Positions 1 to 63,904 of a stretch of 64,000 bases of DNA are shown piece after piece. The DNA comes from an uncultured Alphaproteobacteria bacterium. GTDB lineage: Bacteria > Pseudomonadota > Alphaproteobacteria > RF32 > CAG-239. Numbering within the stretch: position 1 is the first letter of the stretch; each line of letters starts with the position of its first letter. Location: assembly GCA_944391495.1 (NCBI GenBank), contig CALXTU010000002.1, positions 211,736-275,735 on the forward strand, read 5' to 3'. A program made the translations under genes and the position numbers. The notes under the pieces are model-generated. The model was not told the origin of the DNA. It saw nothing but the letters and a program-made list of their open reading frames with translations, and searched no databases.

Positions 1-659
1 ATTTTCATACCGTTTTCCAGCTTAAACATAACCGTTATCGCGTTATCGGTTTTATCCTGATAGCCCAGATTAACCTCAAAGTTTGACAGCGGTGTTTCCG
101 CGGCCCAGGAATAAGGCAAAACACGGTAGTCCTCATAAACCAAACCTTTGTCATAAAGCTGTTTGAAGTTGTTGATGACGCTTTCCATAAAGGGAAGGTC
201 CATGGTTTTGTAGTCATGATTAAAATCTACCCAGCGGCCGATGCGCTTAAACATCTCAACCCAGATGCCGGAATATTTCAGAACATCGGAGCGGCAGAAA
301 TTGTTGAATTTTTCAACCCCGTAGGCCTCAATCTGCTTGCGGCCGGAAACACCAAGCTGCTTTTCGGCCGACATCTCGGCCGGCAGGCCGTGACAGTCCC
401 ACCCCAGACGACGATCGACCTTTTTGCCGTTCATGGTCTGAAAACGGGCGACGACGTCTTTAACATAAGATACCATGATGTGTCCGTAATGCGGCGTGCC
501 GTTGGCAAACGGCGGTCCGTCGTAAAACACGAACTCGGCCGCACCATCGCGGTTCTGCACCGATTTTTCAAAAGTCTTGTCCTTATCCCAGAACTTCAAA
601 ACTTCTTTTTCCAATTCGACAAAGTCAGGCTTTGCCTTAACATCTGCATAATGTTTCAT
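1..659 (-). CDS. ileS: isoleucyl-tRNA synthetase, N-terminal part (the gene runs off the 5' edge of the window)
   Basis: The minus-strand translation from the ATG at 657-659 reads MKHYADVKAKPDF...VFYDGPPFANGTPHYGHI...GWDCHGLPAE. These are class I HIGH-region and IleS-specific motifs. The ORF track omits it because it is truncated by the window edge. Confidence 0.85.
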   Translation of the reverse strand, partial: MKHYADVKAKPDFVELEKEVLKFWDKDKTFEKSVQNRDGAAEFVFYDGPPFANGTPHYGHIMVSYVKDVVARFQTMNGKKVDRRLGWDCHGLPAEMSAEKQLGVSGRKQIEAYGVEKFNNFCRSDVLKYSGIWVEMFKRIGRWVDFNHDYKTMDLPFMESVINNFKQLYDKGLVYEDYRVLPYSWAAETPLSNFEVNLGYQDKTDNAITVMFKLENGMK

Positions 660-897
660 CTGTCAAACACCTAAAAACAAATAAATGATTGTATCTTTGA
701 AAACTAAAAAACGATATGTGTAAAAAAGCGTAAATCCCCCTAGGGGATAATAATGCCGCGGGCGGCTATGATCATAAACAAACACATATCAAAAAACCTT
801 ACAGCTTGCGATTGGCTTCATTGCAGAAATTTAATACAACAAACACCGAGAGTCAACCGGAAATTAATGCGCATATGCCGCCGGTTGGCAAAAAATT

Positions 898-1311
898 TTA
901 TTCAATATACAAGGTGGCTGTACCCGCCCATTCGCCTTCGGCATCAAAAACTTTTTCTTCGACCAGCCAGCTTGCCTTATAATCACAGTTGTTTTCTTTG
1001 CGGCAAGGCCTGAGAGTGTAACGATAAGTGTGTTCTACTTCCCTTGTTCTAAAAGCAAAAACCCCACGGCACTTTAACGTAATGCTCGTTTGAGTGTTCT
1101 CAAGCAATTCACAATTTTCTTCTCTACTGGCACCTAATTTATTGTTAATCACCCTTTTGGTCGGTGTCAGGGTTGTCTGCCAAGTGCCTCTTGACAGCGG
1201 CTCTAAAATTTCCGCAAACAACGGATTGACAAACTCCTCATCTTCCGCCGCCTGTGCTGTACAGACCAGACAGCACACGACTGTCATGAACAAAACTATT
1301 TTCTTTGGCAT
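898..1311 (-). CDS. secreted small protein (paralogue 1), with a signal peptide and three conserved Cys; possible immunity or inhibitor protein
   Basis: The 137-aa product has an N-terminal signal peptide (MPKKIVLFMTVVCCLVCTAQA). Its central roughly 90 nt is identical to the ORF at 2306-2719. Confidence 0.6.
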   Translation of the reverse strand: MPKKIVLFMTVVCCLVCTAQAAEDEEFVNPLFAEILEPLSRGTWQTTLTPTKRVINNKLGASREENCELLENTQTSITLKCRGVFAFRTREVEHTYRYTLRPCRKENNCDYKASWLVEEKVFDAEGEWAGTATLYIE

Positions 1312-1475
1312 TTTCTTATTCCTTTGATTTTAACTATAAAATATCTCTGAAAAAAAAGTCAATATATTTACCATAAATTTTACATTGTTAATTTACAATA
1401 TACTATTGACAACACCTTAAAAATTATTTAGATATATAGTGTATTTTTACAATATCATTAAAAAGGAGATTCTAT

Positions 1476-2255
1476 ATGAGCGAAACAACCGATTTATTAA
1501 GCAGAATGTTAAACGGCCAGACTCCCGTCAGACGGCAAAATCCGCAGCCGGGACAGAGCGAATGGTATTATATTGATCCGCGCGGACGGCGTAATGATTT
1601 TACACTGCTGACTGAGATGAACACCATTGATGTCGACAGCCCGGACGCTCCTAATCCTGTTTTGGGCACCGCCGCACCGGCGACCGATCAGCAGCTGTTG
1701 CAACGAACGGCCGACCATCTCTATGGCGAAGAAGGTCACCCAAATTATATTTATCTGGATACCAAAGGATATAAAACGACCGGCGTGGGCGCCAATATTG
1801 ACAACTGGGACGACTTCCGGCAGGTCAAATGGCAGCAAAACGGCCGTCCGGCCGATGAAGCAAGCGTCAGGCAGGCCTTTGATGATTTTGAAGCATTGAA
1901 ACAGAATCAGCAATACGGGCAATCCATTGTTGCTTCAGATTTTGAAGACATAAGCAATCTGCGGATTGATGACAACGAGGCCAAAAGACTGCTCAACAAC
2001 CATCTGCAGCAAGATCTGGCCGGCGTCAAGCAGGAGGTTCCCGGTTTTGAACAACTGCCGGCGCCGCTGCAGGAAGTGTTGCTGGATATTAAATATAATA
2101 CCGGAAATGTCCGGCAGGAAAACTGGCCTCAGCTGCATGATGCCATCCGACGCAAAGACCTTAACGGTATCAAGTCAAACGTTCATCGCCGTGATGTCGG
2201 CGCACAACGCAATGCCTGGGCGGCAGAACAGATTGACAAAATAAACGGCTGGTAA
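1476..2255 (+). CDS. GH24 (T4/lambda-type) lysozyme-like protein with an N-terminal extension of about 80 aa and no signal peptide
   Basis: A strong SD (aaaggag) lies 7 nt upstream of the ATG. The motif EEGHPNYIYLDTKGYKTTGVGANID matches the E...Y.D..G..TiGyG catalytic region of family-24 lysozymes, and the later LPAPLQEVLLDIKYNTG matches the downstream lysozyme helix. Confidence 0.65.
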   Translation: MSETTDLLSRMLNGQTPVRRQNPQPGQSEWYYIDPRGRRNDFTLLTEMNTIDVDSPDAPNPVLGTAAPATDQQLLQRTADHLYGEEGHPNYIYLDTKGYKTTGVGANIDNWDDFRQVKWQQNGRPADEASVRQAFDDFEALKQNQQYGQSIVASDFEDISNLRIDDNEAKRLLNNHLQQDLAGVKQEVPGFEQLPAPLQEVLLDIKYNTGNVRQENWPQLHDAIRRKDLNGIKSNVHRRDVGAQRNAWAAEQIDKINGW

Positions 2256-2305
2256 GAACTGTCGTGTTGCAAACAGTCCTTTGCCGTTTGTCCGGCAGAG
2301 GGCTG

Positions 2306-2719
2306 TTATTTGATAATCAGGGTTGCGCCGCCGAGATCATATCCTTTTTCATCAAAGGTTTCTTCTTCAACCAGCCAACGCCCGTGATAATAGCAGTCGT
2401 TTTCTTTACGGCAAGGCCTGAGAGTGTAACGATAAGTGTGTTCCACTTCTCTTGTTCTAAAAGCAAAAACCCCACGGCACTTTAACGTAATGCTCGTTTG
2501 AGTGTTCTCAAGCAATTCACAATTTTCTTCTCTACTGGAACCTAATTTATTGTTAATTGCCCTTTTGGTCGGTGTCAGGGTTGTCTGCCAGGCAATTTTT
2601 GATATCGGCTCCATAATTTCATAAAACAGCGGATTAACAAACTTCTCATCTTCCGCCGCCCGTGCCGTACAGGCCAGACAACACATAACCGCTAAAGCCA
2701 AAAACAACTGCTTGTTCAT
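2306..2719 (-). CDS. secreted small protein (paralogue 2)
   Basis: The 137-aa product has the signal peptide MNKQLFLALAVMCCLACTARA. Its core, TLTPTKR.INNKLG.SREENCELLENTQTSITLKCRGVFAFRTREVEHTYRYTLRPCRKEN, is identical to the core of the 898-1311 product. Confidence 0.6.
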   Translation of the reverse strand: MNKQLFLALAVMCCLACTARAAEDEKFVNPLFYEIMEPISKIAWQTTLTPTKRAINNKLGSSREENCELLENTQTSITLKCRGVFAFRTREVEHTYRYTLRPCRKENDCYYHGRWLVEEETFDEKGYDLGGATLIIK

Positions 2720-2860
2720 TTTTATTCTCCAAAATATAAATATAAAATATATGTCTCTGACAGAAAGTCAATCCGTTTAGATGCCGGAAATAAATTTTTG
2801 TCGCTTGCCAAAAAGTTAAAATAGTGTTAATCTTTAGTTATCATAATTGGGAGAAAATTT

Positions 2861-3133
2861 ATGCCTACCACGGAAAAAGTATTAAAAACCGCCGGAAAAG
2901 CCGGTCTGAGCGCAACGATTATCGCCTCGAAAGCGGCAAAATACGGATTAAATTTTACCAGTGATACCGCAGAAATCTTTTTGGGCGGAGCCAAAAACAT
3001 GGCTGATCAGCTGGCGCCCGGACTTAACTGGGAAATTGCCAAGCCTTTGTATAAACAGGGCAAAAAAATTGCCGATGCTGCAATTGACCAAACGATTGCC
3101 TTACAGAAAAAAGTCAAAGGAATGCTTGACTGA
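2861..3133 (+). CDS. hypothetical Lys/Ala-rich 90-aa protein
   Basis: The ORF has an RBS of gggag, and its stop overlaps the start of the next ORF (TGATG), indicating translational coupling. Confidence 0.45.
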   Translation: MPTTEKVLKTAGKAGLSATIIASKAAKYGLNFTSDTAEIFLGGAKNMADQLAPGLNWEIAKPLYKQGKKIADAAIDQTIALQKKVKGMLD

Positions 3134-3447
3134 TGAAACATGCTGAAGATTATCAGGTGGTTTTGAGTGATGAAGGTGTGCCGGTATTTGTGCTGCCTTA
3201 TACGCGGGTGCGGCCGGAGAACCCGATTTTGCTTTATGACGGCGGCCGGCATGCAACTCTGTTTCGCAATGATCACGATGTTTTGCTGATTGATTACATT
3301 CCTGCCAAAGCGGCTGAGGCAATGAACAAATGCGGACGTTTGATTGTGCTGGAACATAATAAGGCCGGTGATGATGTGTTGCGCGATTATCAGGTTTTGA
3401 TAAAAAAAGTTAAAAACAATCCTTTAACCGACGGACTGCCTAAATAA
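3133..3447 (+). CDS. hypothetical 104-aa protein
   Basis: It is translationally coupled to the upstream ORF and is followed by a strong terminator. Confidence 0.45.
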   Translation: MKHAEDYQVVLSDEGVPVFVLPYTRVRPENPILLYDGGRHATLFRNDHDVLLIDYIPAKAAEAMNKCGRLIVLEHNKAGDDVLRDYQVLIKKVKNNPLTDGLPK

Positions 3448-3463
3448 AATTTGATACATCGTA

Positions 3464-3495
3464 AAAAAAGCCCCTCCGAAGAGGGGCCTTTTTTT
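3464..3495. terminator. bidirectional rho-independent terminator
   Basis: The sequence aaaaaaGCCCCTCcgaaGAGGGGCcttttttt has an A-run on one side and a T-run on the other, between the convergent 104-aa gene and eno. Confidence 0.8.
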
Positions 3496-3509: not shown

Positions 3510-4808
<1,299 letters not shown>

Positions 4809-6057: not shown

Positions 6058-6703
6058 AATCTATCAGCGGATATTTTTCCGTACGCCCGTCAGGTAATTC
6101 ATAGTGCCACCATTCATGACGGCGCGGCGCCGGAACCAGTCCCACACTCTGCATCAGCGAACATAACTCGTCCCGGTTGCGGATTGCCTCGGGAATTTGG
6201 TCGTCCTGATAATCAAGCGATGCCTTTTGCAAATAGCGGAAAAAGCCTTGCAGATTTCCGGCCTGCACTTCTTTGGCAAAATTTTCGTCATAGGCATCAA
6301 CCAATGTCGGATAAGGCAGTTCAACACCGTCGGCATCAAGCAGCGCCACATCAACGGCCGTTCCGCGGCAATGCGGCGAACGGGAGGCTTCGGGAATAAA
6401 AAAGCCGTCTTGCGGTATTGCGGCAAACAACAGCCGGTGTGCCGCAGCCGGACGAAAGGCGTCATAGATTTTCAGCCGGCGGCCGGTCTGCTCCAGATAA
6501 GGAATGAGCTTTTGCAGACAGCTCCATAAATCACGGTGCACAAACGCGCGGTTGCCGAGGCCGATTTCCCGATATACCGGCCGGCCGGTCATATTGTGTG
6601 CGGTGCCGGCATACATCAGATCAACCGCAAAATGAGGATCGGTAATTTCAACCAGCCGCTTATCCATAACGCACCGCCTTGATAAAATTTGCAAAAATAT
6701 CAA
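6050..6703 (-). CDS. ddpX: D-alanyl-D-alanine dipeptidase (M15D, VanX/DdpX family)
   Basis: The motifs HCRGTAVDVALLD (H..G.A.D) and EWWHYELPD match Zn ligands and catalytic Glu of VanX-type dipeptidases. Confidence 0.7.
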   Translation of the reverse strand: MIFLQILSRRCVMDKRLVEITDPHFAVDLMYAGTAHNMTGRPVYREIGLGNRAFVHRDLWSCLQKLIPYLEQTGRRLKIYDAFRPAAAHRLLFAAIPQDGFFIPEASRSPHCRGTAVDVALLDADGVELPYPTLVDAYDENFAKEVQAGNLQGFFRYLQKASLDYQDDQIPEAIRNRDELCSLMQSVGLVPAPRRHEWWHYELPDGRTEKYPLIDFK

Positions 6704-7556
6704 CCGCCGGACGGTACCCGGATTTCACAAAATATTCCGGATGCGACTGAAGTCCCAAAACAAACGGATGCCAAGAATTAACCGGCTCAACCGCCTCGAC
6801 AACGCCGTCGGGAGATGTATGGGCGATGTTATTGCCGATATTATCTTTGCTTACCGCCCAGGTGTGCCAAGAATTAACCTCCATCTCGGATATGCCGGTA
6901 ATTTTTTGCAACAGGCTGCCGTTTTTAATTGTCATTTTGTGGGCAAATTCTTTAACATTGGTGCGATGCCTCTCAATGCGGCCGATTTTGGCGCCGAAAC
7001 AGCAAGCCAAAACCTGCATACCGCCGCAAACCGCCAACAAGGGCAACTTGTGTTCTTTGGCATAATTGATAACTTTTATATACACATTGAAGCGCCGCAA
7101 ATCAACCGGATGCTCCGGCTCGTTTTTTTCCCAGTCAAGCGGCACGTCAAACACACCGCCGGGCAGAAAAACACCGTCCGGACGAATGGCATCCAATTGT
7201 TCGGTAACCTTATCATAACCCACCGGACATATTTTGCCTCCGGAAAGTGTGATTGCCTCTACCGTGGCCTGAGGCAGGGTATAGTCAGACTCCGAACGGT
7301 CCGGATGTTGGTCACGAGTCAGAATGACGGCAATTTTTGGGGCTGAAGCCTCTGCCACCACACCCTCCAACTCAATTTCCGGCAAACCGTCGGCAAAAGC
7401 TTTGTCGGTTTCTTCCGCCGGAAGACTGTAGGTTATTTTGTCATCACCCGGATAAACAACGGGGCGCAGACATAATTTACTTGTAAAGTTTTGGGAGCGG
7501 TTCATCGGTCGTCCTTTTGTGTTTTTTGGCGTGTCCGGCCATTTTGCAGAAAACAT
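6660..7556 (-). CDS. class I glutamine amidotransferase-like / peptidase C26 (gamma-glutamyl hydrolase family)
   Basis: The nucleophile elbow LAVCGGMQVLA is present. The start may be at an internal Met near 7505. Confidence 0.6.
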   Translation of the reverse strand: MFSAKWPDTPKNTKGRPMNRSQNFTSKLCLRPVVYPGDDKITYSLPAEETDKAFADGLPEIELEGVVAEASAPKIAVILTRDQHPDRSESDYTLPQATVEAITLSGGKICPVGYDKVTEQLDAIRPDGVFLPGGVFDVPLDWEKNEPEHPVDLRRFNVYIKVINYAKEHKLPLLAVCGGMQVLACCFGAKIGRIERHRTNVKEFAHKMTIKNGSLLQKITGISEMEVNSWHTWAVSKDNIGNNIAHTSPDGVVEAVEPVNSWHPFVLGLQSHPEYFVKSGYRPAVDIFANFIKAVRYG

Positions 7557-9225
7557 CTATAAAAGTTTTGTCGTCCCAGTCTTTGGAGGTTTCGGCATAC
7601 AGCGTTTCGCGCAGTTTATCCAATTCCTTATTGAAAGCGGCATTTTGGAAAATATCGGCCACATCTTGCAGGTTGGTAATCTTGCGTTCGGGAAACTCCG
7701 CAGCCGCCCAGGCCAGAAGATTATCGCGCAGACTCTGCATATCTTTGGCTTTGGCCGCGGCAACAACCGTTTTCCGGCAGGCGGCAGACGGTCTTGACAT
7801 ACGGGCCAGCAGTTTCATCAGCAAAAATGCTGCGACGATACCGCCGACGAAAGCCGCCAGCAAATACAAAATGATATGTGTGTTGTCAACCCGGGTGAAA
7901 ACTTCTGCCGGTTTTGACGGTTCGGCCGGCAGCAAAACCGGCGGCAGTTCGCTTTTGGTCTCGTTTGCCGGTGCTGCGGTTGCGGCCGCCGAAGGCATAC
8001 CGGTTCCGGCAGCAACCTCTGTCTGATAAGCCGGAATAACCGCGGTTTCGGCACTGCCGGTCGCGGTGTTAAACCAGTTTACCTTTATCTCCGGCAGGGT
8101 TATCCGGCCGGCCTTTTCGGGAATATAAACATTGGTGATGCGGGCATAAGAAACGATTTTGCCGTTTTCAACCTTCATATCGGTCTGCGGTTTTTCCGGA
8201 TATTGTTTAACGCCGTCAACCCCGGTAAATTTTATTTCCGGCAACTGATTATCCAAAACACCGACGGCTTTCAGATAAATGGTGCGGCTGACGGCCTCGC
8301 CGGCTTTAAACTGCGGCCGGCCGCCCTCGAAATCGGCAGACAGTTTTACTTCTTCCGCCGGAAGCCACCAGCCCGAGGCTACGGCCGCAGGGCGGACATT
8401 AACTTTTACCGGCTTGGTATTCAGCACAACCGGATTGCGCGAGGCAAAAACATCATTCAGCCCGAAACCGGCAAAAAACGGATCATTGTCAAAAAAGCGG
8501 GCAAACGGATCCGTCCGGCTTTCTTTGGTCAGATAATAGCCGTTGAACCGAACCGGCGGCACGGTAAGCTCACCGCTTTTTTGGGCAAACAGGGCATAGT
8601 TAAAAGTTATTTCCCGCAGGGTCTGTCCGTTGACAATTTTGGTCGAAACCTGCGGTTCGCCGAGATTTTTGATAATCCAGTCATCATTATCGGTGACAAA
8701 AAACGGCGCTTCGCCCTGCAGACCGCCGGCATCATAAATCGTCAGCCGATAGTTAACCTGCTGCTGGACATAGGGGGCGGTATTGTCAATCTTGCCGTCC
8801 ATTTTGAAACGCGGCGTATCAACGGCCGGAGACTGCACCAGCTGATCAGCCGCTCCGGCAGGAACAATGTTCATTGTTACCGGCTGCGTTTTATAACCGG
8901 CAAGTTCGATTGACGGAATGACAAGACTGCCGGTTTGGTTGGGCATCAAAACCAAATTCCACTGCCGCGATTTGCTGACCTGACCATTAATAATGTTGGT
9001 CCGGTAACCGTTGGAAATCGAAAAAACGGTAAAATCTTTGTTTAAGCCGCTTAAATCCGGCGTGGCAGACGTATCAACATCTTGCAGATTGAGCGTCAGG
9101 ACAAAGGTTTCGCCTTCGGGGACGGTCGTGCGGTTGACGGTGGCATCAAAGCTCTGCGCCCACAAAGGACGCACCATTAATAAAGTTCCGAACACAATTA
9201 AAAATATTTTTTTCATTTTCCTCAC
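7477..9225 (-). CDS. batD: BatD-like protein (aerotolerance operon)
   Basis: The 582-aa product has an N-terminal signal peptide and a C-terminal TM segment. It follows two VWA-domain Bat genes on the same strand. Confidence 0.6.
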   Translation of the reverse strand: MRKMKKIFLIVFGTLLMVRPLWAQSFDATVNRTTVPEGETFVLTLNLQDVDTSATPDLSGLNKDFTVFSISNGYRTNIINGQVSKSRQWNLVLMPNQTGSLVIPSIELAGYKTQPVTMNIVPAGAADQLVQSPAVDTPRFKMDGKIDNTAPYVQQQVNYRLTIYDAGGLQGEAPFFVTDNDDWIIKNLGEPQVSTKIVNGQTLREITFNYALFAQKSGELTVPPVRFNGYYLTKESRTDPFARFFDNDPFFAGFGLNDVFASRNPVVLNTKPVKVNVRPAAVASGWWLPAEEVKLSADFEGGRPQFKAGEAVSRTIYLKAVGVLDNQLPEIKFTGVDGVKQYPEKPQTDMKVENGKIVSYARITNVYIPEKAGRITLPEIKVNWFNTATGSAETAVIPAYQTEVAAGTGMPSAAATAAPANETKSELPPVLLPAEPSKPAEVFTRVDNTHIILYLLAAFVGGIVAAFLLMKLLARMSRPSAACRKTVVAAAKAKDMQSLRDNLLAWAAAEFPERKITNLQDVADIFQNAAFNKELDKLRETLYAETSKDWDDKTFIDVFCKMAGHAKKHKRTTDEPLPKLYK

Positions 9226-21010: not shown

Positions 21011-22558
21011 ATGGAGTTCAACCGCAAAAAAATTCCGTCTTATCTGATGATCCTGACAATTATCGGCGTGGTTATCTTTTTTAACGTCATTTATTTTGAC
21101 TCCCATATTTCCGCCAACGATGCCAGCATCGTCGACTATGCCTTAAGCGACGATGACATTAACCCGGTGCGCGAAACGGCCGTTGCCGGCCTGTTTTATC
21201 CGGCGGACGTTTATCAGCTGGACAAAGACCTGGACGGTTATCTTGAACATGCAGCGGCGGATTTGAGCGGCCGGCCGCATATTATGATTGTGCCGCACGC
21301 CGGGTATCAGTATTCGGCACAGGTGGCGGCGCAGGCCTATAAACGGCTGCAGCCGTTCAAAAAACAAATCCGCCGGGTGTTTTTGCTGGGGCCGTCGCAC
21401 CGGACGGCGGTTAACGGCGTTGCGCTGCCTGCCGCCAAAGTTTTCAAGACACCGCTGGGAGCCGTGCGCACCGATACGGAAATTATGAACGAGCTGAAAA
21501 AAAATCCGCTGTTTGTCGTCAGCGCCGCCGCTCATAAAGACGAACACGCCCTGGAAGTGCAGCTGCCGTTTTTGCAAAAAACGCTTGATAAATTTAGTAT
21601 TATTCCGCTGCTTTACGGTCGGGCGGAGCCGGAAAAAATCGCCGCGGCGCTGGCGCCGTTTTTGCAAGACGATGCAACTCTTCTGGTGATTTCGGCCGAT
21701 TTATCGCATTATCTGAATTATGATGAGGCCAAAGAAGCCGATGCCCGTACGGCCGAGCAAATTAAAAATTCCGAGGCCATCAACCATCACCAATCCTGCG
21801 GCGCCACGGCCGTAAACACGGCAATGATTCTGGCGCGCAAATCCGGTTTGGTGCCGCGGCTTTTGGATATGGTCAATTCGGGAGACACTTCCGGTGACAA
21901 ACAGCGGGTCGTCGGTTACGGTGCCTGGGTTTATCAGGAAGCGGCTGAGGCCGAACCGACGGGTATTGAGCTGGAGCAAAAACATTTGCAGAATTTTGCC
22001 CGCCACAACCGGGAAGCCCTGCTTGAAATCGTGCGCTCAAGTCTGGAGGCGGCCGTGCTCAGAAATGAAATCATTCATCCGAAGCGCAGCAATTTTGATG
22101 ATGTTTTGTTTGACAAAGGCGCGTCTTTCGTCACCTTAAAAAAGAACGGCCGGCTGCGCGGCTGCATCGGTTCCGTAACGGCCAACAAGGCTATTGCCGC
22201 CGATTTGGCCGACAACGCTTATGCCGCGGCGCTGCATGATCCCCGTTTTAAACCGGTAACGCCGGAAGAACTGCCGGAGATAGACTTCAGTATTGCCCTG
22301 CTGACTGATTTTGAAGAGATGGATTTTAATTCCTATGCCGACTTATTATCTAAAATAAAGCCCGGCATTGACGGGTTGCTGCTGCGCGACGGCGAACGCG
22401 AAGGCGTCTTTCTGCCGGCGGTGTGGGAAACTCTGCCCGACAAAGAGGAATTTGTCACCCAGCTCAAAATAAAGGCCGGCTTGAGCCCGACTTACTGGGC
22501 CGACAGGGTTAAAGTTTTTCGTTTCAGAACCGTGGAGATAACAGATGACAATGATTAA
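21011..22558 (+). CDS. fusion of MEMO1-family (AmmeMemoRadiSam system protein B) and AMMECR1 (protein A) domains, with an N-terminal TM anchor
   Basis: The aaggag SD precedes the ATG at 21011. A TM helix (SYLMILTIIGVVIFF) is followed by a Memo region (IMIVPHAGYQYS...LLGPSHR) and a C-terminal AMMECR1 motif (GRLRGCIGS). Confidence 0.75.
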   Translation: MEFNRKKIPSYLMILTIIGVVIFFNVIYFDSHISANDASIVDYALSDDDINPVRETAVAGLFYPADVYQLDKDLDGYLEHAAADLSGRPHIMIVPHAGYQYSAQVAAQAYKRLQPFKKQIRRVFLLGPSHRTAVNGVALPAAKVFKTPLGAVRTDTEIMNELKKNPLFVVSAAAHKDEHALEVQLPFLQKTLDKFSIIPLLYGRAEPEKIAAALAPFLQDDATLLVISADLSHYLNYDEAKEADARTAEQIKNSEAINHHQSCGATAVNTAMILARKSGLVPRLLDMVNSGDTSGDKQRVVGYGAWVYQEAAEAEPTGIELEQKHLQNFARHNREALLEIVRSSLEAAVLRNEIIHPKRSNFDDVLFDKGASFVTLKKNGRLRGCIGSVTANKAIAADLADNAYAAALHDPRFKPVTPEELPEIDFSIALLTDFEEMDFNSYADLLSKIKPGIDGLLLRDGEREGVFLPAVWETLPDKEEFVTQLKIKAGLSPTYWADRVKVFRFRTVEITDDND

Positions 22559-24260
22559 CGGATATGAAATTGCCTTAAGCGAAGATAAGCTTGAGCACAT
22601 CATCAAAGACCAGATGATGCCGGTTGAAATGGTCGGACCGGAATTTGACGGCTACAAAAAGCTGGCCGAAGGCGACAAAAAGGCTCTGGCACATCTGACG
22701 GCGGCCGCGCGGATTATCAACGACGTGGCGCTGGAACAGGATCACCCGCTGAACCGCTTTTTCAAAAAAGGGCTGGAAGATGCCGCCGATACCGATACTC
22801 ATGCCGCCAAAGCGCTTAAACTGTTCAACTCGCTGAACGGTGTGGCCGGGCTTAACGGCATTGATCCGGAGCCTGTGGAAATTTTTGCCGGCGTTCACGG
22901 ATTCAAAGGACACAATTTTTATCCGACGGACCTTGGTGTTGACGAATTTCACACCATTCTGCAAAAAATGCTGGAACGCGGCAAAGACGACAAGGTGCGC
23001 AAAATCGTTTCGGCGCGGACGATGGTGCGGCGGGACGGCGACGAGCTTAAAGGCATTGACTATACCGTTTATTTTGCTCCCGAATTTGCCAAGATAGCCA
23101 ACGAACTTGAGGTGGCGGCACATTATTCGACCAACAAGGCGTTTAACGATTATCTCGGCTGGCAGGCGCAGGCTCTGTTGCAAAACAACGAGGATATGGA
23201 TATGCTGGCCGACAAGCACTGGGCGGTGTTGCAGGATACGCCTCTGGAATTTACGTTGTCGCACGAAAATTATGACGACGCCATGACACCGACGATTTTT
23301 GACAATCCGGCGCTGGCAGCTTTGCTGGAATCACGGAATATTTTGCCGGTGCCGAAAGATATGCTCGGCGCGCGGGTAGGCATTGTCAATAAAAAGGGCA
23401 CCGATTTAATCTTAACCTTCAAAGAACAGATGAGTAAGCTGGCCAAACTGATGCCGCTTCATGATAAATACGTGCAGAAAATAGAATCCGGCGACGAGGT
23501 CAAACAGACGATGGTCGACGTTGATCTGGTCACCCTGCAGGGTGACTACGCGCAGTGCCGCGGCGGTATCACCACCGCACAAAATCTGCCCAATGACGAC
23601 AAGCTTGCGGTCAGAACCGGCGGCGGACGGCGCAACGTTTATCACCGGCAGGTCAGAATGTCGGCAGACAAAGAACGCACCAGAAAAATGCTGGACAAAC
23701 TGCTGGACAAGGAGTTTCACCGCTGGTTTGACGACGAGGCTGAACATATTTTTGTCATCGGGCATGAAAACGGCCACTCATTGGGACCGGACGCTTCTTA
23801 TAAAACGGCTCTCGGCATTTATCAGCATACGATTGAGGAGAACAAGGCCGACGTAGTTTCCATCGCGATGATGCCGCAATATGTCACGGCCGGCGTTATT
23901 GACGAAGAAACACTCAAAAAGGTTTATGTTACCTGGGGAATGCGTCTGCTGTTGAAAGCGCGGCCGCAGCCGGAACAGCCGCACCGCGTGGGCGACCTGA
24001 TACACTTTAACTATCTTTTGAAACACGGTGCCATTGCCGTAACGCCGGAAAACAAAATACGCTTTGATTTTGCCAAGTTTCCGGAAGTTATGCAAAAGAT
24101 TTTGCAGGAAACCATTGAGGTTCAGTTGTCAAAATCACCGGCACGGGCCAAAGCCTTTATCGACGAAAACACTGCCTGGGGCGAGCTGCACGAATATATC
24201 GCCAAAACGCTGCAAAGCCTCGGCATCAAGCCTTATAAAGACATCAGGACATATTTGTAA
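22545..24260 (+). CDS. putative M49-like (dipeptidyl-peptidase III-related) zinc metallopeptidase
   Basis: The product has VIGHENGH (HExxH) and a downstream EENKAD that resembles the M49 EEcRAE second motif. Its start overlaps the upstream ORF by 14 nt. Confidence 0.4.
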   Translation: MTMINGYEIALSEDKLEHIIKDQMMPVEMVGPEFDGYKKLAEGDKKALAHLTAAARIINDVALEQDHPLNRFFKKGLEDAADTDTHAAKALKLFNSLNGVAGLNGIDPEPVEIFAGVHGFKGHNFYPTDLGVDEFHTILQKMLERGKDDKVRKIVSARTMVRRDGDELKGIDYTVYFAPEFAKIANELEVAAHYSTNKAFNDYLGWQAQALLQNNEDMDMLADKHWAVLQDTPLEFTLSHENYDDAMTPTIFDNPALAALLESRNILPVPKDMLGARVGIVNKKGTDLILTFKEQMSKLAKLMPLHDKYVQKIESGDEVKQTMVDVDLVTLQGDYAQCRGGITTAQNLPNDDKLAVRTGGGRRNVYHRQVRMSADKERTRKMLDKLLDKEFHRWFDDEAEHIFVIGHENGHSLGPDASYKTALGIYQHTIEENKADVVSIAMMPQYVTAGVIDEETLKKVYVTWGMRLLLKARPQPEQPHRVGDLIHFNYLLKHGAIAVTPENKIRFDFAKFPEVMQKILQETIEVQLSKSPARAKAFIDENTAWGELHEYIAKTLQSLGIKPYKDIRTYL

Positions 24261-26317: not shown

Positions 26318-29221
26318 TTAAAGTATACTGCCGACGAAGTAATTGACGGAGCCATTATAGTTTATGCTCCATACTCCGTTCTCGGCAATACCGGTGGCTT
26401 TCAAAGGTTCCGGGAAAGGTTCACCATTAATGGTTCCTTCCATAACACCAAGCCTCAGAGCCAAACCTCCTGCAAGATCATAGTAATCTATCCGATAATC
26501 AAGATCCGCATTGCTGCTTGTCTCATAATACATGGTGCCGATAACCCATGAAGCTCCCGTCCATACCCATGCAATCGAACGACCGGAAGACAAAATGCTC
26601 TGTCCCTCGGCTGCTGTCAGCTGGGTGGTGGTGAAACTTGTTTCATTCACACCGCGGGAATATACAACGTAACTTCCGTCGTTATTTCTCGCTAAGATGT
26701 GAAGGTCCGTACTCATTAATGAACGGCCCTGGTATGCGTCGGTAATCCACATACCCATAATTTCACCATTTATAATCTCTGCCTCGATATAATTTACCGG
26801 TACCGTGGCAGAGATTTCTTCTGTTTCATGCTCGAAAGTAATCGTTGCACTTCCTTCACCAAAGGTGATGGTGGCAACGTTTACTTCACATACCGGAGCC
26901 TCACTGCGGTAGTCATTTCCATCAAATACAATGGCTGAAACCTCTCTTGAGGAGAAGTTAACAGTTACATTATATCCTTCAACAACAGCGGTACCTGCGT
27001 TGAATTGGAATGACTGCCCCTTAACGGAAGCCGGTATGCTCGGCATACTATACACGAACCGGTTGGTCCATGTATAGTCTGCAGAAGCCTTTGAAGATGT
27101 TCCGTCAGACATGGTCGTCGTCTGAACGGCCTCATTGTCGCATACCACCGAAATGGTGTTGTTAGCGACAACCGCATTGCTGCGGAAGGCTACGTGACGG
27201 TAGTCACGGGCTACGTCCACCACCGTTACAGGCTCCTCATAAGGAACCACGGTGGCAGGGATAGTTACCTCAGCATAATCCTCGCTGTTGCTGTCGTAAA
27301 AACGAACAACAGCTTCAGAGGCTGATGTAAAGCTGATCGTACGGGCTGCGGCTTCGCAAGGAGTGATCTCGCTTGCGTAGTCTTTATCCTGGTACATTAC
27401 ACTTCCCTCAACCTCAGCAGACAAATGCTGAGCGGAGATTCTACTTCCGCACACGGTGACTTCACCGTTGACGAAGTCGTAGGTATTACCCACAACTGCG
27501 TCTTCCGCCGTTGCCTGTATCTCCGGTATGGAGGCAGAGAAACGGTTTCTAACGATGTAGTCCACGCTTTCCTCGTTCTGACGTGAGCTGTCGCTCATCA
27601 CCTGTACGAAATCCGCAACATTGTTGCAGAATACGTTGATGATGTTGTTTGACAGCTGCGCCTCACGCTGGAAAGCGATGTGGCGGTGTGCCCAGTCTAC
27701 GTGGTCCATCACCACCTTTTCGGTTTCGATGATGGACACAGACAATGTCAGCTCCGCATAATCTGAGGCCTTTTCGTCATAAAAGACGACGGTTGCCTCA
27801 GATGTTGAGTTGAAAGTAATGGTCTTTGGCTCAACCTCACAAGGAATAATTTCCCCGGTATAGTCTTTGCCGCGGTATTCTACTTTCCCCTCAATGGCAG
27901 AACTGATTGCCCTGAATGTCACCTGCTGCTGATTTACCACATTGGCCACGCCGTTGGCAAAGACAAAGGTCTTGCCGACAACCTCATTAAGGTTATCAAC
28001 CGTAATTACCGGAATATTAGCGGTAAACCGGTTAAGAACGACATAGTCAACCGTTTCGGCGTTGTGCTCGCTGCTGTCGGTGTAGATTTCAACGAAATCT
28101 GCAGCATTGTCGCAGAAAACATTGACGACACCGTCTACCAGCGTTGCCTGACGCTGAAACGCAATGTGGCGGTATGACCATTCTGTCCGGTCGTAAACCG
28201 GAACCGGCGTGCCGTCTATGGAAATTGTCAGTTCGGCATAGTCCGCCTCGTCCTCATCATAGAAGACGATGGTGGCGGCATTTTTGTTGAAGCTGATGGT
28301 TCTGGCCGCAACCGTGCAAGGGGTTATTTCCTCCGCATAGTTTTTGTCCTGATAAACCACCTCATCTTCAATACTTGCCGAAAGCCATTTGCAGGACAGC
28401 TCTTTGCCGGCCAGCTCGACAATACCGTCAATAAATTCAACGGTTGTGCCGTCGAGTTCGGCAATCTCTGTCTCACTTAGCGTCGGAGCGCTGAGTGATA
28501 AGAGGTTGTTGACGATATAGCCGGCTTTCTTCACGTTTTGCCTGGAGCCGTCAGACATCACCTCAGCGAATTCTGCAACATTATTGCAAAGTACGCTGAC
28601 AACGTTGTCTTTCAGTCCGGCATTACGCTGGAAAGCGATGTGGCGATATGCCCAGTCTATGTGGTCGACTGTCGGAGATACATACCCCTCCTCAACCACA
28701 AAGACCTGAGTTGCACCGGCGAGCTCTAACTCTCCGTAAGACAAGATATAATCTGTCTCGGAGAGTTCATAGAAAGCAGGCTCGCTGCTGCTTTCTACCA
28801 CATTGTGGTGGCCTAACACTGTCAGCTCAACCCCACAAGGTATCTCATAAGAGACGCCCTCGTAGGTGAACGGCATTGTCAGCCCTTCAACTGTGACTTC
28901 ATTGTTGATGTCATAGTTGTAGGCAAAAGTCAGAGTGTCCTCTGCGACTTTGCGAAGAGCTTCAGCAGCCTCAATACCTTCAGTTCCCGCAACACGAATT
29001 GAATCCTGAGCTTTAAGCCCAAAAGGACTATCCGCATAACCAAGGCTCAGGGAATCCGTTGAAAAAGCCTCTACAAATTCTGAATTGTCCGTCGGTAGGA
29101 AGTATCCTGGTATCCGACTTCTCTGAGGTAAGTTTTCCTCAATTTCCGTCAATGCACTTGTGCAAGACGCTGAGGTCATGACAGCTATCACGACCAACAA
29201 AATGTTGATTAAATTTTTCAT
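26318..29221 (-). CDS. large surface lipoprotein with four tandem repeats of about 165 aa
   Basis: The 967-aa product has a lipoprotein signal peptide (MKNLINILLVVIAVMTSASC). Repeat units begin W(A/S)(Y/H)RHIAFQR...NV(F/L)C(N/D)N and each contains conserved Cys. The repeats are also visible at nucleotide level over roughly 26950-28740. Confidence 0.8.
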   Translation of the reverse strand: MKNLINILLVVIAVMTSASCTSALTEIEENLPQRSRIPGYFLPTDNSEFVEAFSTDSLSLGYADSPFGLKAQDSIRVAGTEGIEAAEALRKVAEDTLTFAYNYDINNEVTVEGLTMPFTYEGVSYEIPCGVELTVLGHHNVVESSSEPAFYELSETDYILSYGELELAGATQVFVVEEGYVSPTVDHIDWAYRHIAFQRNAGLKDNVVSVLCNNVAEFAEVMSDGSRQNVKKAGYIVNNLLSLSAPTLSETEIAELDGTTVEFIDGIVELAGKELSCKWLSASIEDEVVYQDKNYAEEITPCTVAARTISFNKNAATIVFYDEDEADYAELTISIDGTPVPVYDRTEWSYRHIAFQRQATLVDGVVNVFCDNAADFVEIYTDSSEHNAETVDYVVLNRFTANIPVITVDNLNEVVGKTFVFANGVANVVNQQQVTFRAISSAIEGKVEYRGKDYTGEIIPCEVEPKTITFNSTSEATVVFYDEKASDYAELTLSVSIIETEKVVMDHVDWAHRHIAFQREAQLSNNIINVFCNNVADFVQVMSDSSRQNEESVDYIVRNRFSASIPEIQATAEDAVVGNTYDFVNGEVTVCGSRISAQHLSAEVEGSVMYQDKDYASEITPCEAAARTISFTSASEAVVRFYDSNSEDYAEVTIPATVVPYEEPVTVVDVARDYRHVAFRSNAVVANNTISVVCDNEAVQTTTMSDGTSSKASADYTWTNRFVYSMPSIPASVKGQSFQFNAGTAVVEGYNVTVNFSSREVSAIVFDGNDYRSEAPVCEVNVATITFGEGSATITFEHETEEISATVPVNYIEAEIINGEIMGMWITDAYQGRSLMSTDLHILARNNDGSYVVYSRGVNETSFTTTQLTAAEGQSILSSGRSIAWVWTGASWVIGTMYYETSSNADLDYRIDYYDLAGGLALRLGVMEGTINGEPFPEPLKATGIAENGVWSINYNGSVNYFVGSIL

Positions 29222-37093: not shown

Positions 37094-37231
37094 TAATTAT
37101 TATTTGTTTTAACATTAGGGGGAATATTGTTAAAATATGATAAAATTTAGCAAAAAATTGATGAATATTTAAAATAATTACGCTAGCATATAAATACTTT
37201 GCCGCTGTCTGCAACTTTCAAGGAAAAGATC

Positions 37232-38401
37232 ATGCACAATATTGTTCCCTCTCATTTCAGCAACAAACTGGAGCTTAATTACAAAAAAAGAGATGCTTTT
37301 CTGACTGACCGGGCCGACCTGAAATTGCTGCTGCCGGGAATTGTGTTCGGTTTTCTGCTGTTTTTGCTGGGTGTATACGAGTGGAGTAATGCTTTTAAGG
37401 GCGGAACGGAAATTATTCCGGCGGACGAGGCAATTGTGTACCGCCCGGTTTTGGCCGTTTGGTTCTTTGACCTTTGCTTTGCTCTGGTCGGTATCGGTAT
37501 GGTCGTTACCAATATTCTGCTTTATATCCGCTATAACAAATATAAATTCATCGGCAAAAAAGTAACCATCATCAAACGTCCCATTCTGCACGACAAACTG
37601 ATTATGCAGGAAGAACTGAAAAACTACACCGGTGTGCGTTTCCGGGTTGAATTTCTGCAATCGGGCTTTCTGACACAAAACCGCTATATCATTGAATTGT
37701 ACCATCCCAATCCGGAAAAAATCGTTCCGCTCTATTTGTCAACATCGGCTAAAGGCGTGCGCAAAAAATGGAAAGAATATGCCCGTCAGTTCAAATTGCC
37801 GGCCATGATTGACACCGACAGCGGCCTGAAAAAAATTGAGCTCAAAAACCTTAACAAATCCGTCGGACAGCTTTATAAGCTCGGCATCATCAAGGACGAA
37901 TATGATCAATACGATCCGCTGCCGGATGCCATCAGTTTCGTGCGCAAAAAAGATAAAATGGTTCTCAAAGTGCGCAAAATTTTATGGGACGCATACAACC
38001 TTCTGGCCTGGCTGGCTATCTTTCTCATTGCGGCAATCGTACTGTTGGTGGCAACCAATCCGGATATCTTCCGGCAGGCTTTTGCCTCAACGATATACAG
38101 CATGATTATTGCCGGGATTCTGGTCATTTTTGTCGCCGTGCAGATTTTGTTCCGTAAAGAAAAACTGGTTATCAAAAAACACAAAATCGTCAACACGCAT
38201 AAATATATGCTGTTTTCGACAAAACATAACGAGATCATGAAAAAAGACATTGAGGCGATTGAGGTCAGCAAAAATCCCGCGACCGGACGGTTCTTTGTAT
38301 CAATTATTTCCGAGGACAATACCATTACTTTCGGTGCCAAAATGGCCATTAAAGATTTACAGTGGATAAAAAGGTTTTTAATCCACGAAATCGTCCGGTA
38401 G
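37232..38401 (+). CDS. hypothetical membrane protein
   Basis: The ORF has low GC, an aaggaaaag RBS and several TM segments. Confidence 0.45.
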   Translation: MHNIVPSHFSNKLELNYKKRDAFLTDRADLKLLLPGIVFGFLLFLLGVYEWSNAFKGGTEIIPADEAIVYRPVLAVWFFDLCFALVGIGMVVTNILLYIRYNKYKFIGKKVTIIKRPILHDKLIMQEELKNYTGVRFRVEFLQSGFLTQNRYIIELYHPNPEKIVPLYLSTSAKGVRKKWKEYARQFKLPAMIDTDSGLKKIELKNLNKSVGQLYKLGIIKDEYDQYDPLPDAISFVRKKDKMVLKVRKILWDAYNLLAWLAIFLIAAIVLLVATNPDIFRQAFASTIYSMIIAGILVIFVAVQILFRKEKLVIKKHKIVNTHKYMLFSTKHNEIMKKDIEAIEVSKNPATGRFFVSIISEDNTITFGAKMAIKDLQWIKRFLIHEIVR

Positions 38402-51997: not shown

Positions 51998-52777
51998 ATG
52001 CTTGACTTATTAAACACGGTATTCAAATACAAGGAAAAAAGAAGCCCTGACAAACTGGGGCTTTATCCGGAGGCGATACATACCAACGCCATGCCGGAAC
52101 GCCGCTATTTGTGGAGCTCGCGACTTCTGGTTATTTTTGCGGCTTTAAGCATCTGCCTCAATATGATGCTGGTTTCCGGTCTTTATATTATGCTACCGCA
52201 GCGCAGCTCATCGCCGTTGTTGTTTAAACACGACCGGATTTTCAGCCAGTTTGCCCTACTGGAAAAACAGGAGCGTCCTGCAGCCGCAATTGATCTCTTA
52301 ACCGAATCTTTTATTGAAGAATTTATCCTGCTCCGCTATGTCATCTCGTCCGACTATGATGAGCTTCTGACACGTTGGGGGCGCGGTTCGCGTCTGTATT
52401 GGATGTCGTCACGGCTGGTTTATCAGAATTTTATATCCAACGACCTTAACAACAACATCAACCAGTTCAAACTACGCGGGCTGATACGGCTGGCAGAAGT
52501 GGAGTGGATAAAACCGATGTCGCGCGGGTTCTGGATGGCGCAGTTTATTACCATGGATTATTATCCCGGCGAAACCGTGCCGATTATTAACGTCTGGCGG
52601 GCATATTTGCGGGCCATGCTGGCACCGATACCCTATGCAAACAAATCTCTGCGCGACAAAAATCCTTTCGGTTTTCTGGTGACCAATTATTCAATGTCTT
52701 ATGTCGGGACGCCTGATGATCCGGAAAGCTACTTAAATACCGCCAAAGACGTCAGAGCCGAGCTGTATCCGTATTAG
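51998..52777 (+). CDS. VirB8-like protein (T4SS inner-membrane component), paralogue 1
   Basis: An N-terminal cytoplasmic segment and one TM segment are followed by an NTF2-like domain with the NPFGFLVTNY motif. Confidence 0.65.
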   Translation: MLDLLNTVFKYKEKRSPDKLGLYPEAIHTNAMPERRYLWSSRLLVIFAALSICLNMMLVSGLYIMLPQRSSSPLLFKHDRIFSQFALLEKQERPAAAIDLLTESFIEEFILLRYVISSDYDELLTRWGRGSRLYWMSSRLVYQNFISNDLNNNINQFKLRGLIRLAEVEWIKPMSRGFWMAQFITMDYYPGETVPIINVWRAYLRAMLAPIPYANKSLRDKNPFGFLVTNYSMSYVGTPDDPESYLNTAKDVRAELYPY

Positions 52778-52790
52778 TGAAAGGCTGCCG

Positions 52791-53594
52791 ATGATCCTTT
52801 CCGCCCTGTTTCATTATCGCGACAAAAAAAGTCCGGACAAACTCGGACGTTATCCCGGCGATTTTCATATTAAGGCCTTTCCCGAACGGCGATATTTATG
52901 GACATCGCGGATATTGGCCATCTTTGCCGTTTTGAGCTTTTGTCTGACCATTATGCTGGTGATGACGCTGTATCTTTTAATTCCGCAGCAAACGGCAAAA
53001 CCGATCTTTTATGTTTCCGACAAAGATTTGTATCATCTGGAAAACGCCCAGCCCTGGCAGACCAGCGCCTCATACCGCGATCTTTTGAGCGAAAAGTATA
53101 TTACCGACTATATCAAAATGCGCCACGCCATTCCGATTTCTTCCGCCGATTTGTTTTACCGCTGGGATACGAATTCGCTGTTTTATTGGTACTCCGGGTT
53201 GCGAAACTACTATCAGTTTGTCAACAATCTGGATAATGACCAGCTGAAACTGTTTATTCGTCTCAAAATGCGGCGGCAGGTGGAAATAGACTGGATTAAA
53301 AAACTGACCGGCAATTTATGGGCGGCACAGTTCCGGACAATGACCTCGACCAAAGATATGCCGGAGCCGGACATCATCATCTGGCGGGCGTACCTGCGCA
53401 TTTCTTATCTGGAATTTGACCGTTATGAAGATATTGAAAAAGACGACCGCGACAAACTCAACTACACATCAAATCCGTTCGGCTTCAAAGTTATCAACTA
53501 CTCCGTCGCCTATGCCGGAAAACCCGAAAAAGCCGATGATTATCTGACCACCGCCAAAAAAGTTTTTGAAAATCTTGAAGACGTTATCAGATAA
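52791..53594 (+). CDS. VirB8-like protein, paralogue 2
   Basis: It has the same architecture and the NPFGFKVINY motif. Confidence 0.65.
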   Translation: MILSALFHYRDKKSPDKLGRYPGDFHIKAFPERRYLWTSRILAIFAVLSFCLTIMLVMTLYLLIPQQTAKPIFYVSDKDLYHLENAQPWQTSASYRDLLSEKYITDYIKMRHAIPISSADLFYRWDTNSLFYWYSGLRNYYQFVNNLDNDQLKLFIRLKMRRQVEIDWIKKLTGNLWAAQFRTMTSTKDMPEPDIIIWRAYLRISYLEFDRYEDIEKDDRDKLNYTSNPFGFKVINYSVAYAGKPEKADDYLTTAKKVFENLEDVIR

Positions 53595-60155: not shown

Positions 60156-60232
<77 letters not shown>

Positions 60233-60539
60233 AAGAAATTCAAGGCTTTCGAGAAATCGAGAGCCTTTTGTTTTATCCAAAATGGGACACTGCTGGGACA
60301 TTAAAGATAAAAAATACAAATAATCAGAAACTAATAACAACACAGAAACCCTCTAAAATAGACTTTTTTAGACTTGTATGTCCCTTTAGTGTCCCACAGA
60401 GTGATTAGCGCATATATTTATCCCGTTAATTCAATATAATATATATCAGGAAACATCAGCTTGTAAAACTTGTTGACATATATTCTGACTTCTTTTAGAC
60501 TCTTTTTATCTATTTTAATTTATTAAAAAGGTATTGGTT

Positions 60540-61601: not shown

Positions 61602-61602
61602 T

Positions 61603-62655: not shown

Positions 62656-62754
62656 CTTGAAACTCCATTATATTATAATCTGAAATTTATAAAAATACTC
62701 CATAGCAAGTGCAAAAAGCTTGCAATTAGTAATAATAAATATGGAGTATTTAAA

Positions 62755-63166: not shown

Positions 63167-63168
63167 TA

Positions 63169-63852: not shown

Positions 63853-63904
63853 AGTAGATTGAAAATACCTTTGAACTAGTACTACAAAAATTAGGAGATA
63901 TAAC

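Follow-up and report, generated by a model that had tools for sequence, protein, structure and literature searches.

We analysed a stretch of 64,000 nucleotides (nt) from an uncultured alphaproteobacterium (the window; contig CALXTU010000002.1, positions 211,736 to 275,735). Near its left end, between ileS and eno, lies a gene for a lysozyme-like protein without signal peptide, here called the central protein. It is flanked on both sides by genes for small secreted proteins, A and B, which are located on the opposite strand. The original prediction, made from the letters of the sequence and their translations, had proposed that the central protein is a peptidoglycan hydrolase effector and that the flanking proteins confer immunity to it. 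All open reading frame (ORF) coordinates of that prediction were confirmed and are listed in Table 1. Loci used for comparison are numbered L, relatives of the central protein P.

The lysozyme-like domain was identified by its motif and by its predicted fold. The segment EEGHPNYIYLDTKGYKTTGVG in the N-terminal lobe is a gapless match to T4 lysozyme, with E11, D20 and T26 of the latter corresponding to E86, D95 and T101 of the central protein (E-x8-D-x5-T motif). In the family alignment E86 and D95 are invariant and T101 is nearly invariant. Searching the PDB with the single sequence yielded only noise and the family profile was required; this profile matched hundreds of T4 lysozyme entries with E values of about 0.01, always at residues 5-50 and in the same register. 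The AlphaFold2 model of the central protein has a predicted local distance difference test score (pLDDT) of 85.6 and shows a two-lobe alpha/beta lysozyme fold. Foldseek returned T4 lysozyme, the gp5 lysozyme, pesticin and phage lysozymes as top matches (probability 1.0, E values of 2e-4 to 2e-3), and T4 lysozyme-Spackle complexes were also found among the matches. The template modelling score against T4 lysozyme is about 0.6, normalised to the length of T4 lysozyme. The predicted structure had been set beforehand as a possible refutation of the assignment to glycoside hydrolase family 24 (GH24), and the T4 lysozyme-like fold was recovered in it. The curated sequence families were less clear: Pesticin (PF16754) stayed below threshold (E=0.013, 15.9 bits versus a cut-off of 25.8), PF00959 gave no match and the PHROG endolysin family matched weakly (E=0.006). 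Scans of all five proteins encoded at 898-3447 against Pfam, NCBIfam, PHROGs and PADLOC gave no match above threshold. Thus, the GH24 assignment is supported by the predicted fold and by the Glu/Asp/Thr motif, whereas the Pfam threshold was not reached. The central protein is therefore termed GH24-like and can be regarded as a putative muramidase.

The absence of a signal peptide, as originally predicted, was borne out by hydropathy, which at the N-terminus reaches a maximum of -0.07 in the central protein compared to about 3.0 in the small proteins. This is a property of the whole family, since 95 of the 97 proteins bearing the lysozyme-like domain have no hydrophobic N-terminus. In the model the polypeptide chain of the central protein ends with the final helix of the lysozyme fold, so that there is no space for a signal domain at the C-terminus.

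Both small proteins carry a signal peptide, as expected from the first reading, with a hydropathy of about 3.0 and cleavage-like sites (AQA↓A in protein A, ARA↓A in the other copy). The hydrophobic N-terminal signal is the only membrane-associated segment; a C-terminal transmembrane helix was not found by hydropathy. Protein A matches the hidden Markov model (HMM) of the small family with an E value of 2.6e-68. Three conserved cysteines had been noted; the mature proteins A and B in fact share four (C67, C81, C102 and C108), and the set conserved throughout the family is C17, C67 and C81. C17 is the lipobox position in distant members, which have canonical lipoboxes (LLSAC, LTAC) aligned with it. 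The small family also has a conserved segment with the pattern F.NPLF...W.T.LTPT. The small proteins gave no Pfam match of any kind and are neither by sequence nor by fold members of the MliC/PliC, Ivy, PliG or Spackle families. Further copies of the lysozyme or small family were not found elsewhere in the window. At three other loci, double-length small-family ORFs of 260-272 aa (amino acids) are present that appear to be tandem fusions of two units (L022 738-1526, L023 6649-7431 and L024 6716-7534).

Small proteins A and B are 75% identical, and this identity is distributed unevenly. Core codons 53-107 are 96.4% identical, whereas the two ends are 60-67% identical. The nucleotide-identical core, originally estimated at about 90 nt, measures 88 nt and is the longest identical DNA run between the two genes. 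A run of this length was reached in none of 5000 simulations at a uniform identity of 81%, the longest simulated run being 58 nt. The recombination or gene conversion postulated from this tract was confirmed and extends further than first thought: each small protein is a mosaic of an N-terminal (A or B), a middle (1 or 2) and a C-terminal cassette (A or B). These three two-allele cassettes reassort, and nearly all eight combinations were seen. In the window the middle cassettes are located at about 1000-1150 and 2410-2560. The TTGACT box upstream of the gene for A is kept upstream of the gene for B, and the sequence surrounding it is conserved between the two copies.

Table 1. Position of the lysozyme gene, the small genes and their neighbours in the window.
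Feature	Position	Strand	Description	Basis
ileS (isoleucyl-tRNA synthetase, IleRS), 5′ end	1..659	-	left boundary, outside module; runs off window	six-frame translation; synteny in L001 and L009
Small secreted protein A	898..1311	-	137 aa; cassettes N-A / middle-1 / C-A; candidate periplasmic immunity protein or inhibitor; divergent from lysozyme gene	
Sigma-70-like promoter of small A	1333..1362	-	TTGACT, 18 nt, TATAGT; 10/12 matches	predicted by consensus only
Central gene, whole	1476..2255	+	259 aa, signal-less	
N-terminal module of central protein	1476..1685	+	aa 1-70; R.NP..G.SEWYYIDPRGR..DF..TIDV..PD.PNP; MuF core absent	alignment; PF04233 in relatives
T4 lysozyme-like (GH24-like) domain	1686..2255	+	aa 71-259; E86 1731-1733, D95 1758-1760, T101 1776-1778	
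Lysozyme allelic patch 1	1734..1745	+	aa 87-90; GHPN in window, QNLP in other strains; right after catalytic Glu	
Lysozyme allelic patch 2	1926..1952	+	aa 151-159; acidic IVASDFEDI in window, basic MKASRFKNV or IKANRFRNI in other strains	
Small secreted protein B	2306..2719	-	137 aa; cassettes N-B / middle-1 / C-B; candidate periplasmic immunity protein or inhibitor; convergent with lysozyme gene	
Sigma-70-like promoter of small B	2744..2771	-	TTGACT, 16 nt, TATTTT; 9/12 matches	predicted by consensus only
Identical 88-nt tract (middle cassette, type 1)	1043..1130 and 2451..2538	-	gene-conversion/recombination tract	
90-aa gene	2861..3133	+	right boundary, outside module	
104-aa gene	3133..3447	+	1-nt overlap with 90-aa gene, translationally coupled; right boundary, outside module	
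Bidirectional terminator	3470-3487		downstream of 90-aa and 104-aa genes	
eno	3510-4790	-	right flank	

The lysozyme gene and the small gene occur together in other genomes. Using HMMs of both families we found one to five small-family genes directly downstream of the lysozyme gene, always on the opposite strand, at 12 of 15 assessable genome loci and at 13 of 14 assessable metagenome loci. Many of the metagenome loci are strains of one species; counted by lineage, the pair is present in at least 12 distinct ones with lysozyme identities of 23-97%, and the pairing is kept down to identities of 23-28%. The convergent orientation, as seen for small protein B, is conserved throughout the family. 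All genome matches are metagenome-assembled genomes of uncultured Alphaproteobacteria, mostly from the gut, the closest being BRZ_DP__bin105 (97% identity). The chromosomal context of the pair differs, with at least four sites found: ileS/eno (window), rpsF-rplI (L004), sspB/DHFR (L002) and ABC/dnaJ (L005). Beside dnaJ (L005-7) the lysozyme domain is located behind a PG_binding_1 N-terminus and is again followed by small-family genes. Because the small family also accompanies this PG_binding_1 fusion, with a lysozyme domain recognised by hhalign with a probability of 100%, it tracks the lysozyme domain and not the N-terminus.

Some details of these loci are of interest on their own. L005 (5899-8446; also L006 and L007) contains a tandem of two small-family genes with an identity of 92%. 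These genes overlap by 4 nt with one another and with the preceding gene for an ATP-binding cassette (ABC) exporter, which suggests that they are co-translated with the ABC transporter. Human-gut metagenome contigs L036-L043 contain near-identical genes for a 284-aa lysozyme together with 1, 3, 4 or 5 small genes arranged head to tail; thus, the copy number varies between samples of what is apparently one species. A 155-aa gene upstream in L002 and L003 was considered as a small-family member and rejected.

The N-terminal part of the central protein had been described as an extension of about 80 aa rich in P, Q and R, possibly a targeting signal for a type IV or type VI secretion system (T4SS, T6SS). 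The family alignment showed instead that the N-terminal approximately 70 aa are a conserved domain and not low-complexity sequence. Relatives P0002, P0004, P0010 and P0011 share residues 1-65 with the central protein, followed by a MuF core (PF04233) of about 65 aa (YYIW.T.GDD.VR..H...PGEDYNCRC) and then by the lysozyme domain. The region is therefore assigned to a MuF-type head-protein module of phages, of which it forms the N-terminal part and which is found in head-gene clusters; it is not a T4SS or T6SS signal. To follow this module, consisting of N-motif and MuF core, we scanned 1.8 billion representative proteins in full with HMMER. Apart from lysozyme domains, it is fused to GH108 plus PG_binding_3, to a VgrG3-C-like domain (PF21277), to a pesticin-like domain and to C-termini without assignment. 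A sister species has the N-motif alone, without the MuF core, and with a different cargo, which suggests that the N-motif is functional without the MuF core. This protein of 198 aa is encoded in the ileS-eno hotspot of the sister species (L058 5366-6622; also L059 and L060); its C-terminal domain is unrelated to the lysozyme domain and had no match in Pfam or PHROGs. It is followed by a 200-aa protein with several transmembrane segments and a cysteine-rich tail (SYSDGTYDECMKKCVLPDGSNYKQCSLDTCDFPL), and the two are a candidate membrane-targeting toxin/immunity pair.

Fusions with other cargo have other partners. Downstream of the MuF-VgrG3-C fusion (L013-15), a convergent gene that overlaps with it encodes a 136-aa secreted protein unrelated to the small family. 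Next to the MuF-GH108 fusion (L012) another convergent small type is present, the signal sequence of which is encoded in an adjoining 58-aa ORF. Such swapping of the partner together with the cargo is the behaviour of a polymorphic toxin/immunity system.

In two cases the fusions are located in the head module of a phage. On the viral contig L062 (IMGVR_UViG_3300028797_006165) the gene order is large terminase subunit (TerL), a 343-aa protein consisting of N-motif, MuF core and lysozyme-like domain (family HMM E=7e-100), a small-family gene of 158 aa (E=4e-17), which is convergent and overlapping, and a major head protein. The latter is of the same type as in L013, where a phage structural cluster contains TerL, the major head protein (phrog_9953, E=3e-107), the MuF-VgrG3-C fusion and a tail fibre. 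The fusion protein of L013 matches families annotated as "head morphogenesis" and "minor head protein and DNA pilot". Because of this head-module context in L062 and L013, the pair in the window can be interpreted as a head-module cassette of phage origin that now resides in the chromosome. Upstream of the terminase in L062 a truncated small-family fragment is found (3942-4193, minus strand, HMM E=1e-5), which is a second, decayed immunity copy. Two further secreted proteins are encoded inside the structural cluster of L013, a cysteine-rich one of 209 aa (6417-7046, plus strand) and one of 162 aa (7140-7628, minus strand), which is related to the small gene next to the GH108 fusion and is maybe an orphan immunity gene.

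Taken together, we consider it probable, with moderate confidence, that the locus was derived from a MuF-type cassette of the phage head module and now, in the chromosome, encodes a signal-less muramidase effector and periplasmic small proteins that neutralise it. In the phage form the fusion protein, encoded directly after the large terminase and carrying the MuF core, would be the effector. The small gene, on the opposite strand and with its own promoter, could be expressed while the late genes are silent. The effector would be delivered into the envelope of the recipient, where the lysozyme domain might cut peptidoglycan. Cells bearing the cassette would export the small protein to the periplasm, using the Sec signal or, in distant members, the lipobox, and there it might bind and block incoming or leaked lysozyme. 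This would result in self-protection and exclusion, similar to Spackle and gp5 or to Pim and pesticin. In the window the cassette has lost the MuF core and retains the N-terminal module together with a complete catalytic motif; its two candidate immunity paralogues undergo recombination, both between themselves and with further alleles of the population. The effector/immunity interpretation of the original prediction is supported by comparative genomics, namely by the conserved pairing, the partner swap and the small-gene arrays that outlive the lysozyme; its secretion-system context was not supported and is reassigned to the phage MuF-type cassette.

Several results weigh against this explanation. 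The MuF core is missing from the window protein, P0001 and P0003 in the alignment, and Pfam found no PF04233 match in the window protein. The cassette of the window is not part of a head-morphogenesis module, and no phage structural genes were found among the window ORFs scanned, which leaves capsid delivery of this copy unsupported. A first scan of viral contigs with the lysozyme-type alignment found none, its seed peptides being too specific, and in the scan with the N-motif and MuF alignment L062 was the only viral contig with the full architecture. Three genome loci and one metagenome locus have no small-family gene detectable by HMM; at three of these four, other secreted proteins or lipoproteins are encoded directly after the lysozyme gene. 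The model of the small protein, a six-stranded beta domain, has a moderate pLDDT of 64.5 and does not cover the segment of highest conservation (aa 25-50), and the fold search gave no specific match to known inhibitors. Finally, lysozyme alleles differ mainly in two patches, aa 87-90 and aa 151-159. The window combines an acidic patch-2 allele (DFEDI) with two small proteins of the basic middle type (FRTREVEH); elsewhere basic patch-2 alleles (RFKNV) are found with acidic middle types (PDFGEEEN). Opposite charges of patch 2 and middle cassette are consistent in five of five loci, most of which carry both types, so that this comparison has low power and is a lead only.

MuF is a domain of minor head proteins, which according to predictions in the literature enter the capsid and reach the recipient together with the DNA. 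Proteins with a MuF core fused to toxins have been predicted to be packaged in capsids and injected, with small immunity ORFs adjacent to them (PMC3482391, PMC5576092, PMC11699363). Lysozyme domains have also been found in phage-packaged polyvalent proteins (PMC5512222). MuF toxins are widespread and barely characterised; studies exist only for the Apk2 proteins and for Bxa, which have cytosolic targets (PMC11699363). The words "lysozyme" and "peptidoglycan" appear nowhere in Jamet et al. 2017 (PMC5576092), and in the literature on MuF-type toxins we found no description of a MuF-lysozyme cargo with secreted immunity partners. Like the MuF polymorphic toxins (Zhang et al. 2012, PMC3482391; Jamet et al. 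2017, PMC5576092; Apk2 and Bxa, PMC11699363, PMC12226406), the proteins described here have an N-terminal module with a PF04233 core (in the relatives) and enzymatic domains at the C-terminus that can be exchanged. The small ORF next to them changes together with the C-terminal domain, and the genes are adjacent to the terminase in the head module (L062, L013), as for the known toxins. However, the MuF toxins described so far act on cytosolic targets (nucleases, ADP-ribosyltransferases, (p)ppApp synthetases, deaminases and peptidases), whereas the cargo here is a predicted peptidoglycan hydrolase for the periplasm paired with a secreted protein or lipoprotein whose gene is on the opposite strand. 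The N-terminal part comprises only about 125 aa, compared to about 320 aa in Bxa, and the hosts are Alphaproteobacteria and not Firmicutes or Bacteroidales. The window copy differs additionally by having no MuF core and by its location outside a prophage.

The proposed layout is also found in phage T4, where gp5, a T4 lysozyme-type enzyme delivered by the virion, is neutralised in the periplasm by Spackle (gp61.3), a small secreted protein of the phage carrier, resulting in protection and exclusion (PMC7677548, PMC7650644). The gp5 lysozyme is part of the tail spike, whereas the lysozyme described here is fused to a head-protein module. Spackle shows no similarity to the small proteins, which are beta-rich and have a conserved unstructured N-terminal motif. 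Pesticin of Yersinia pestis (PF16754; PDB 4epf, 4exm) likewise has a T4 lysozyme-like muramidase domain behind an exchangeable N-terminal delivery domain. No other Pfam family matched the central protein at all, and this match is below threshold; pesticin is also among the fold matches. Pim is the periplasmic immunity protein of pesticin. Uptake of pesticin depends on a receptor and TonB and not on a phage, and Pim is likened here to the small proteins by description, not by direct comparison. MliC/PliC, Ivy and PliG resemble the small proteins in being small, beta-rich and periplasmic or lipoproteins; the shared role would be that of a proposed blocker of the lysozyme active site.

At the ileS-eno site the gene order varies between strains. 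With S for the small and L for the lysozyme gene, it is S-L-S in the window, S-S-L-S in L001 and S-L-S-L-S in L009. In L052 and L053 (S-L-S) the lysozyme is truncated to 165 aa, in L054-56 it is reduced to remnants of 39 and 71 aa, and these strains keep two to four small genes. Such losses would be expected if the small proteins were the selected function of an orphan-immunity island, directed against lysozyme effectors of phages or rival strains, and if the MuF-less lysozyme were a non-delivered, decaying relic. The small-gene copy number of 1 to 5, the 32 database clusters of the small protein versus 11 of the lysozyme and the missing MuF core of the window copy point in the same direction. 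Nevertheless, we regard a relic as fairly unlikely. The lysozyme ORF of the window is intact, is 95-98% conserved across samples and belongs to a family with an invariant catalytic motif, and the two proteins of the tandem lysozyme duplication in L009 are identical in sequence. The second MuF-less form, P0003, retains the architecture of the window protein at an identity of only 46%. In addition, allelic differences are grouped in the two patches and not scattered as in a decaying gene, and the N-motif without MuF core bears other cargo in the sister species, suggesting function.

If the lysozyme were injected into neighbouring cells by a contact-dependent secretion system, either T4SS X-Tfe/X-Tfi-like or T6SS-like, the small proteins would guard the kin. 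The layout of a signal-less peptidoglycan hydrolase with an adjacent periplasmic or lipoprotein partner fits X-Tfe/X-Tfi and T6SS muramidase pairs (PMC10933484, PMC8740702). One of the sister cargos of the N-terminal module is a VgrG3-C-like domain (PF21277), as in the T6SS protein VgrG3. VgrG3/TsiV3 and Tse3/Tsi3 are peptidoglycan hydrolase effector/immunity pairs of T6SS. In the window two VirB8 paralogues are encoded in tandem at 51998-53594, so that a T4SS may exist in the genome. We consider this mode of delivery improbable, since Pfam found no XVIPCD, PAAR, MIX, Rhs or VgrG domain in the central protein, which ends with the last lysozyme helix, and secretion genes are not linked to it: ORF scans of the window detected no T6SS genes, and the VirB8 genes, at a distance of 50 kb, have no other T4SS genes beside them. 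Moreover, the N-terminal module occurs in phage head clusters, fused to the MuF core.

The VirB8 genes themselves are located at 51998-52777 and 52791-53594 on the plus strand (Pfam E=2e-9 and 3e-14). They resemble the scattered, duplicated vir arrangement of the Rickettsiales type, which suggests that a T4SS is encoded somewhere in the genome. The first of them has, like the central gene, 259 aa and was considered as a second lysozyme copy; it is VirB8 and the length is a coincidence.

Signal-less T4 lysozyme-like enzymes, as found in the fold search, are typical of endolysins, and the locus might accordingly be the lysis cassette of a defective prophage or gene transfer agent (GTA), with a cytoplasmic endolysin, a holin and small genes that are spanin-like or regulate lysis. 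The distant small-family lipoproteins of about 130 aa are similar in size to unimolecular spanins, and GTAs are common in Alphaproteobacteria, the class of the host. This is nonetheless very improbable. No holin-like transmembrane protein is encoded next to the lysozyme, the small proteins have no C-terminal transmembrane helix, and in phages the gene is part of the head module, fused to the MuF core, and not of the lysis module. The partner is convergent, swaps with the type of hydrolase and is present in up to five copies, which lysis accessory genes do not do. A housekeeping enzyme of cell-wall remodelling with a periplasmic regulator, for which the neighbours ileS and eno and the PG_binding_1 domain of some relatives could be cited, can practically be dismissed, since the same site is empty of the pair in sister species, copy number and pseudogenes vary between strains, the enzyme has no export signal and relatives are phage-borne.

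Going beyond the derivative of a MuF-type head-module cassette, a more far-reaching proposal seems to us possible but rather doubtful. The locus would then represent an undescribed branch of MuF-type capsid-delivered effectors, the cargo of which consists of peptidoglycan hydrolases active in the periplasm. Each hydrolase would be paired with its own secreted immunity protein, belonging to a new family. The N-motif of about 65 aa (NP..G.SEWYY.DP...IDV..P..PNP) would be an autonomous trafficking domain that does not need MuF, and the chromosomal copies might still be delivered, for example as passengers in the particles that a resident phage or GTA produces. Immunity would diversify by shuffling of the three cassettes, co-evolving with the two lysozyme patches near the active site. 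If this is true, capsid-borne effectors could act in the envelope during DNA entry, and virion entry lysins that come with superinfection exclusion, such as gp5/Spackle, would be less clearly separated from interbacterial toxins that come with immunity, such as pesticin/Pim and the T6SS muramidases. The locus offers a candidate for a new family of lysozyme inhibitors with a conserved, probably unstructured, binding motif, as well as a compact N-terminal module that is possibly a packaging or trafficking signal. It also offers natural recombining alleles from uncultured Alphaproteobacteria of the human and animal gut that are suited to specificity mapping.

The genes for the 90-aa and 104-aa proteins had been thought to belong to the same module. 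They are part of the conserved backbone: the pair is conserved across the alphaproteobacterial lineage, always beside ileS and only at this site, and in the sister species it directly adjoins ileS with no lysozyme or small gene in between. The 104-aa protein has 44 homologues of uniform length with identities of 55-97%. Neither protein has a transmembrane segment according to hydropathy, which rules them out as holins, and library scans assigned neither to a family. On the left side, a 152-aa ORF (216-674, plus strand) was dropped as a gene because it is antisense to ileS.

Elsewhere in the window, three longer ORFs had no Pfam or PHROG match: 22545-24260 (plus strand, 571 aa), 26318-29221 (minus strand, 967 aa) and 37199-38401 (plus strand, 400 aa). 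Towards the right end a tRNA-Met gene (60156-60232) is followed by a gene for a tyrosine integrase (60534-61601, phrog_1 E=7e-63) and by DNA with 30-34% GC containing ORFs without family matches. The region 60156-64000 looks like an integrated element that starts there and runs off the window; this element could be a resident phage of relevance to delivery.

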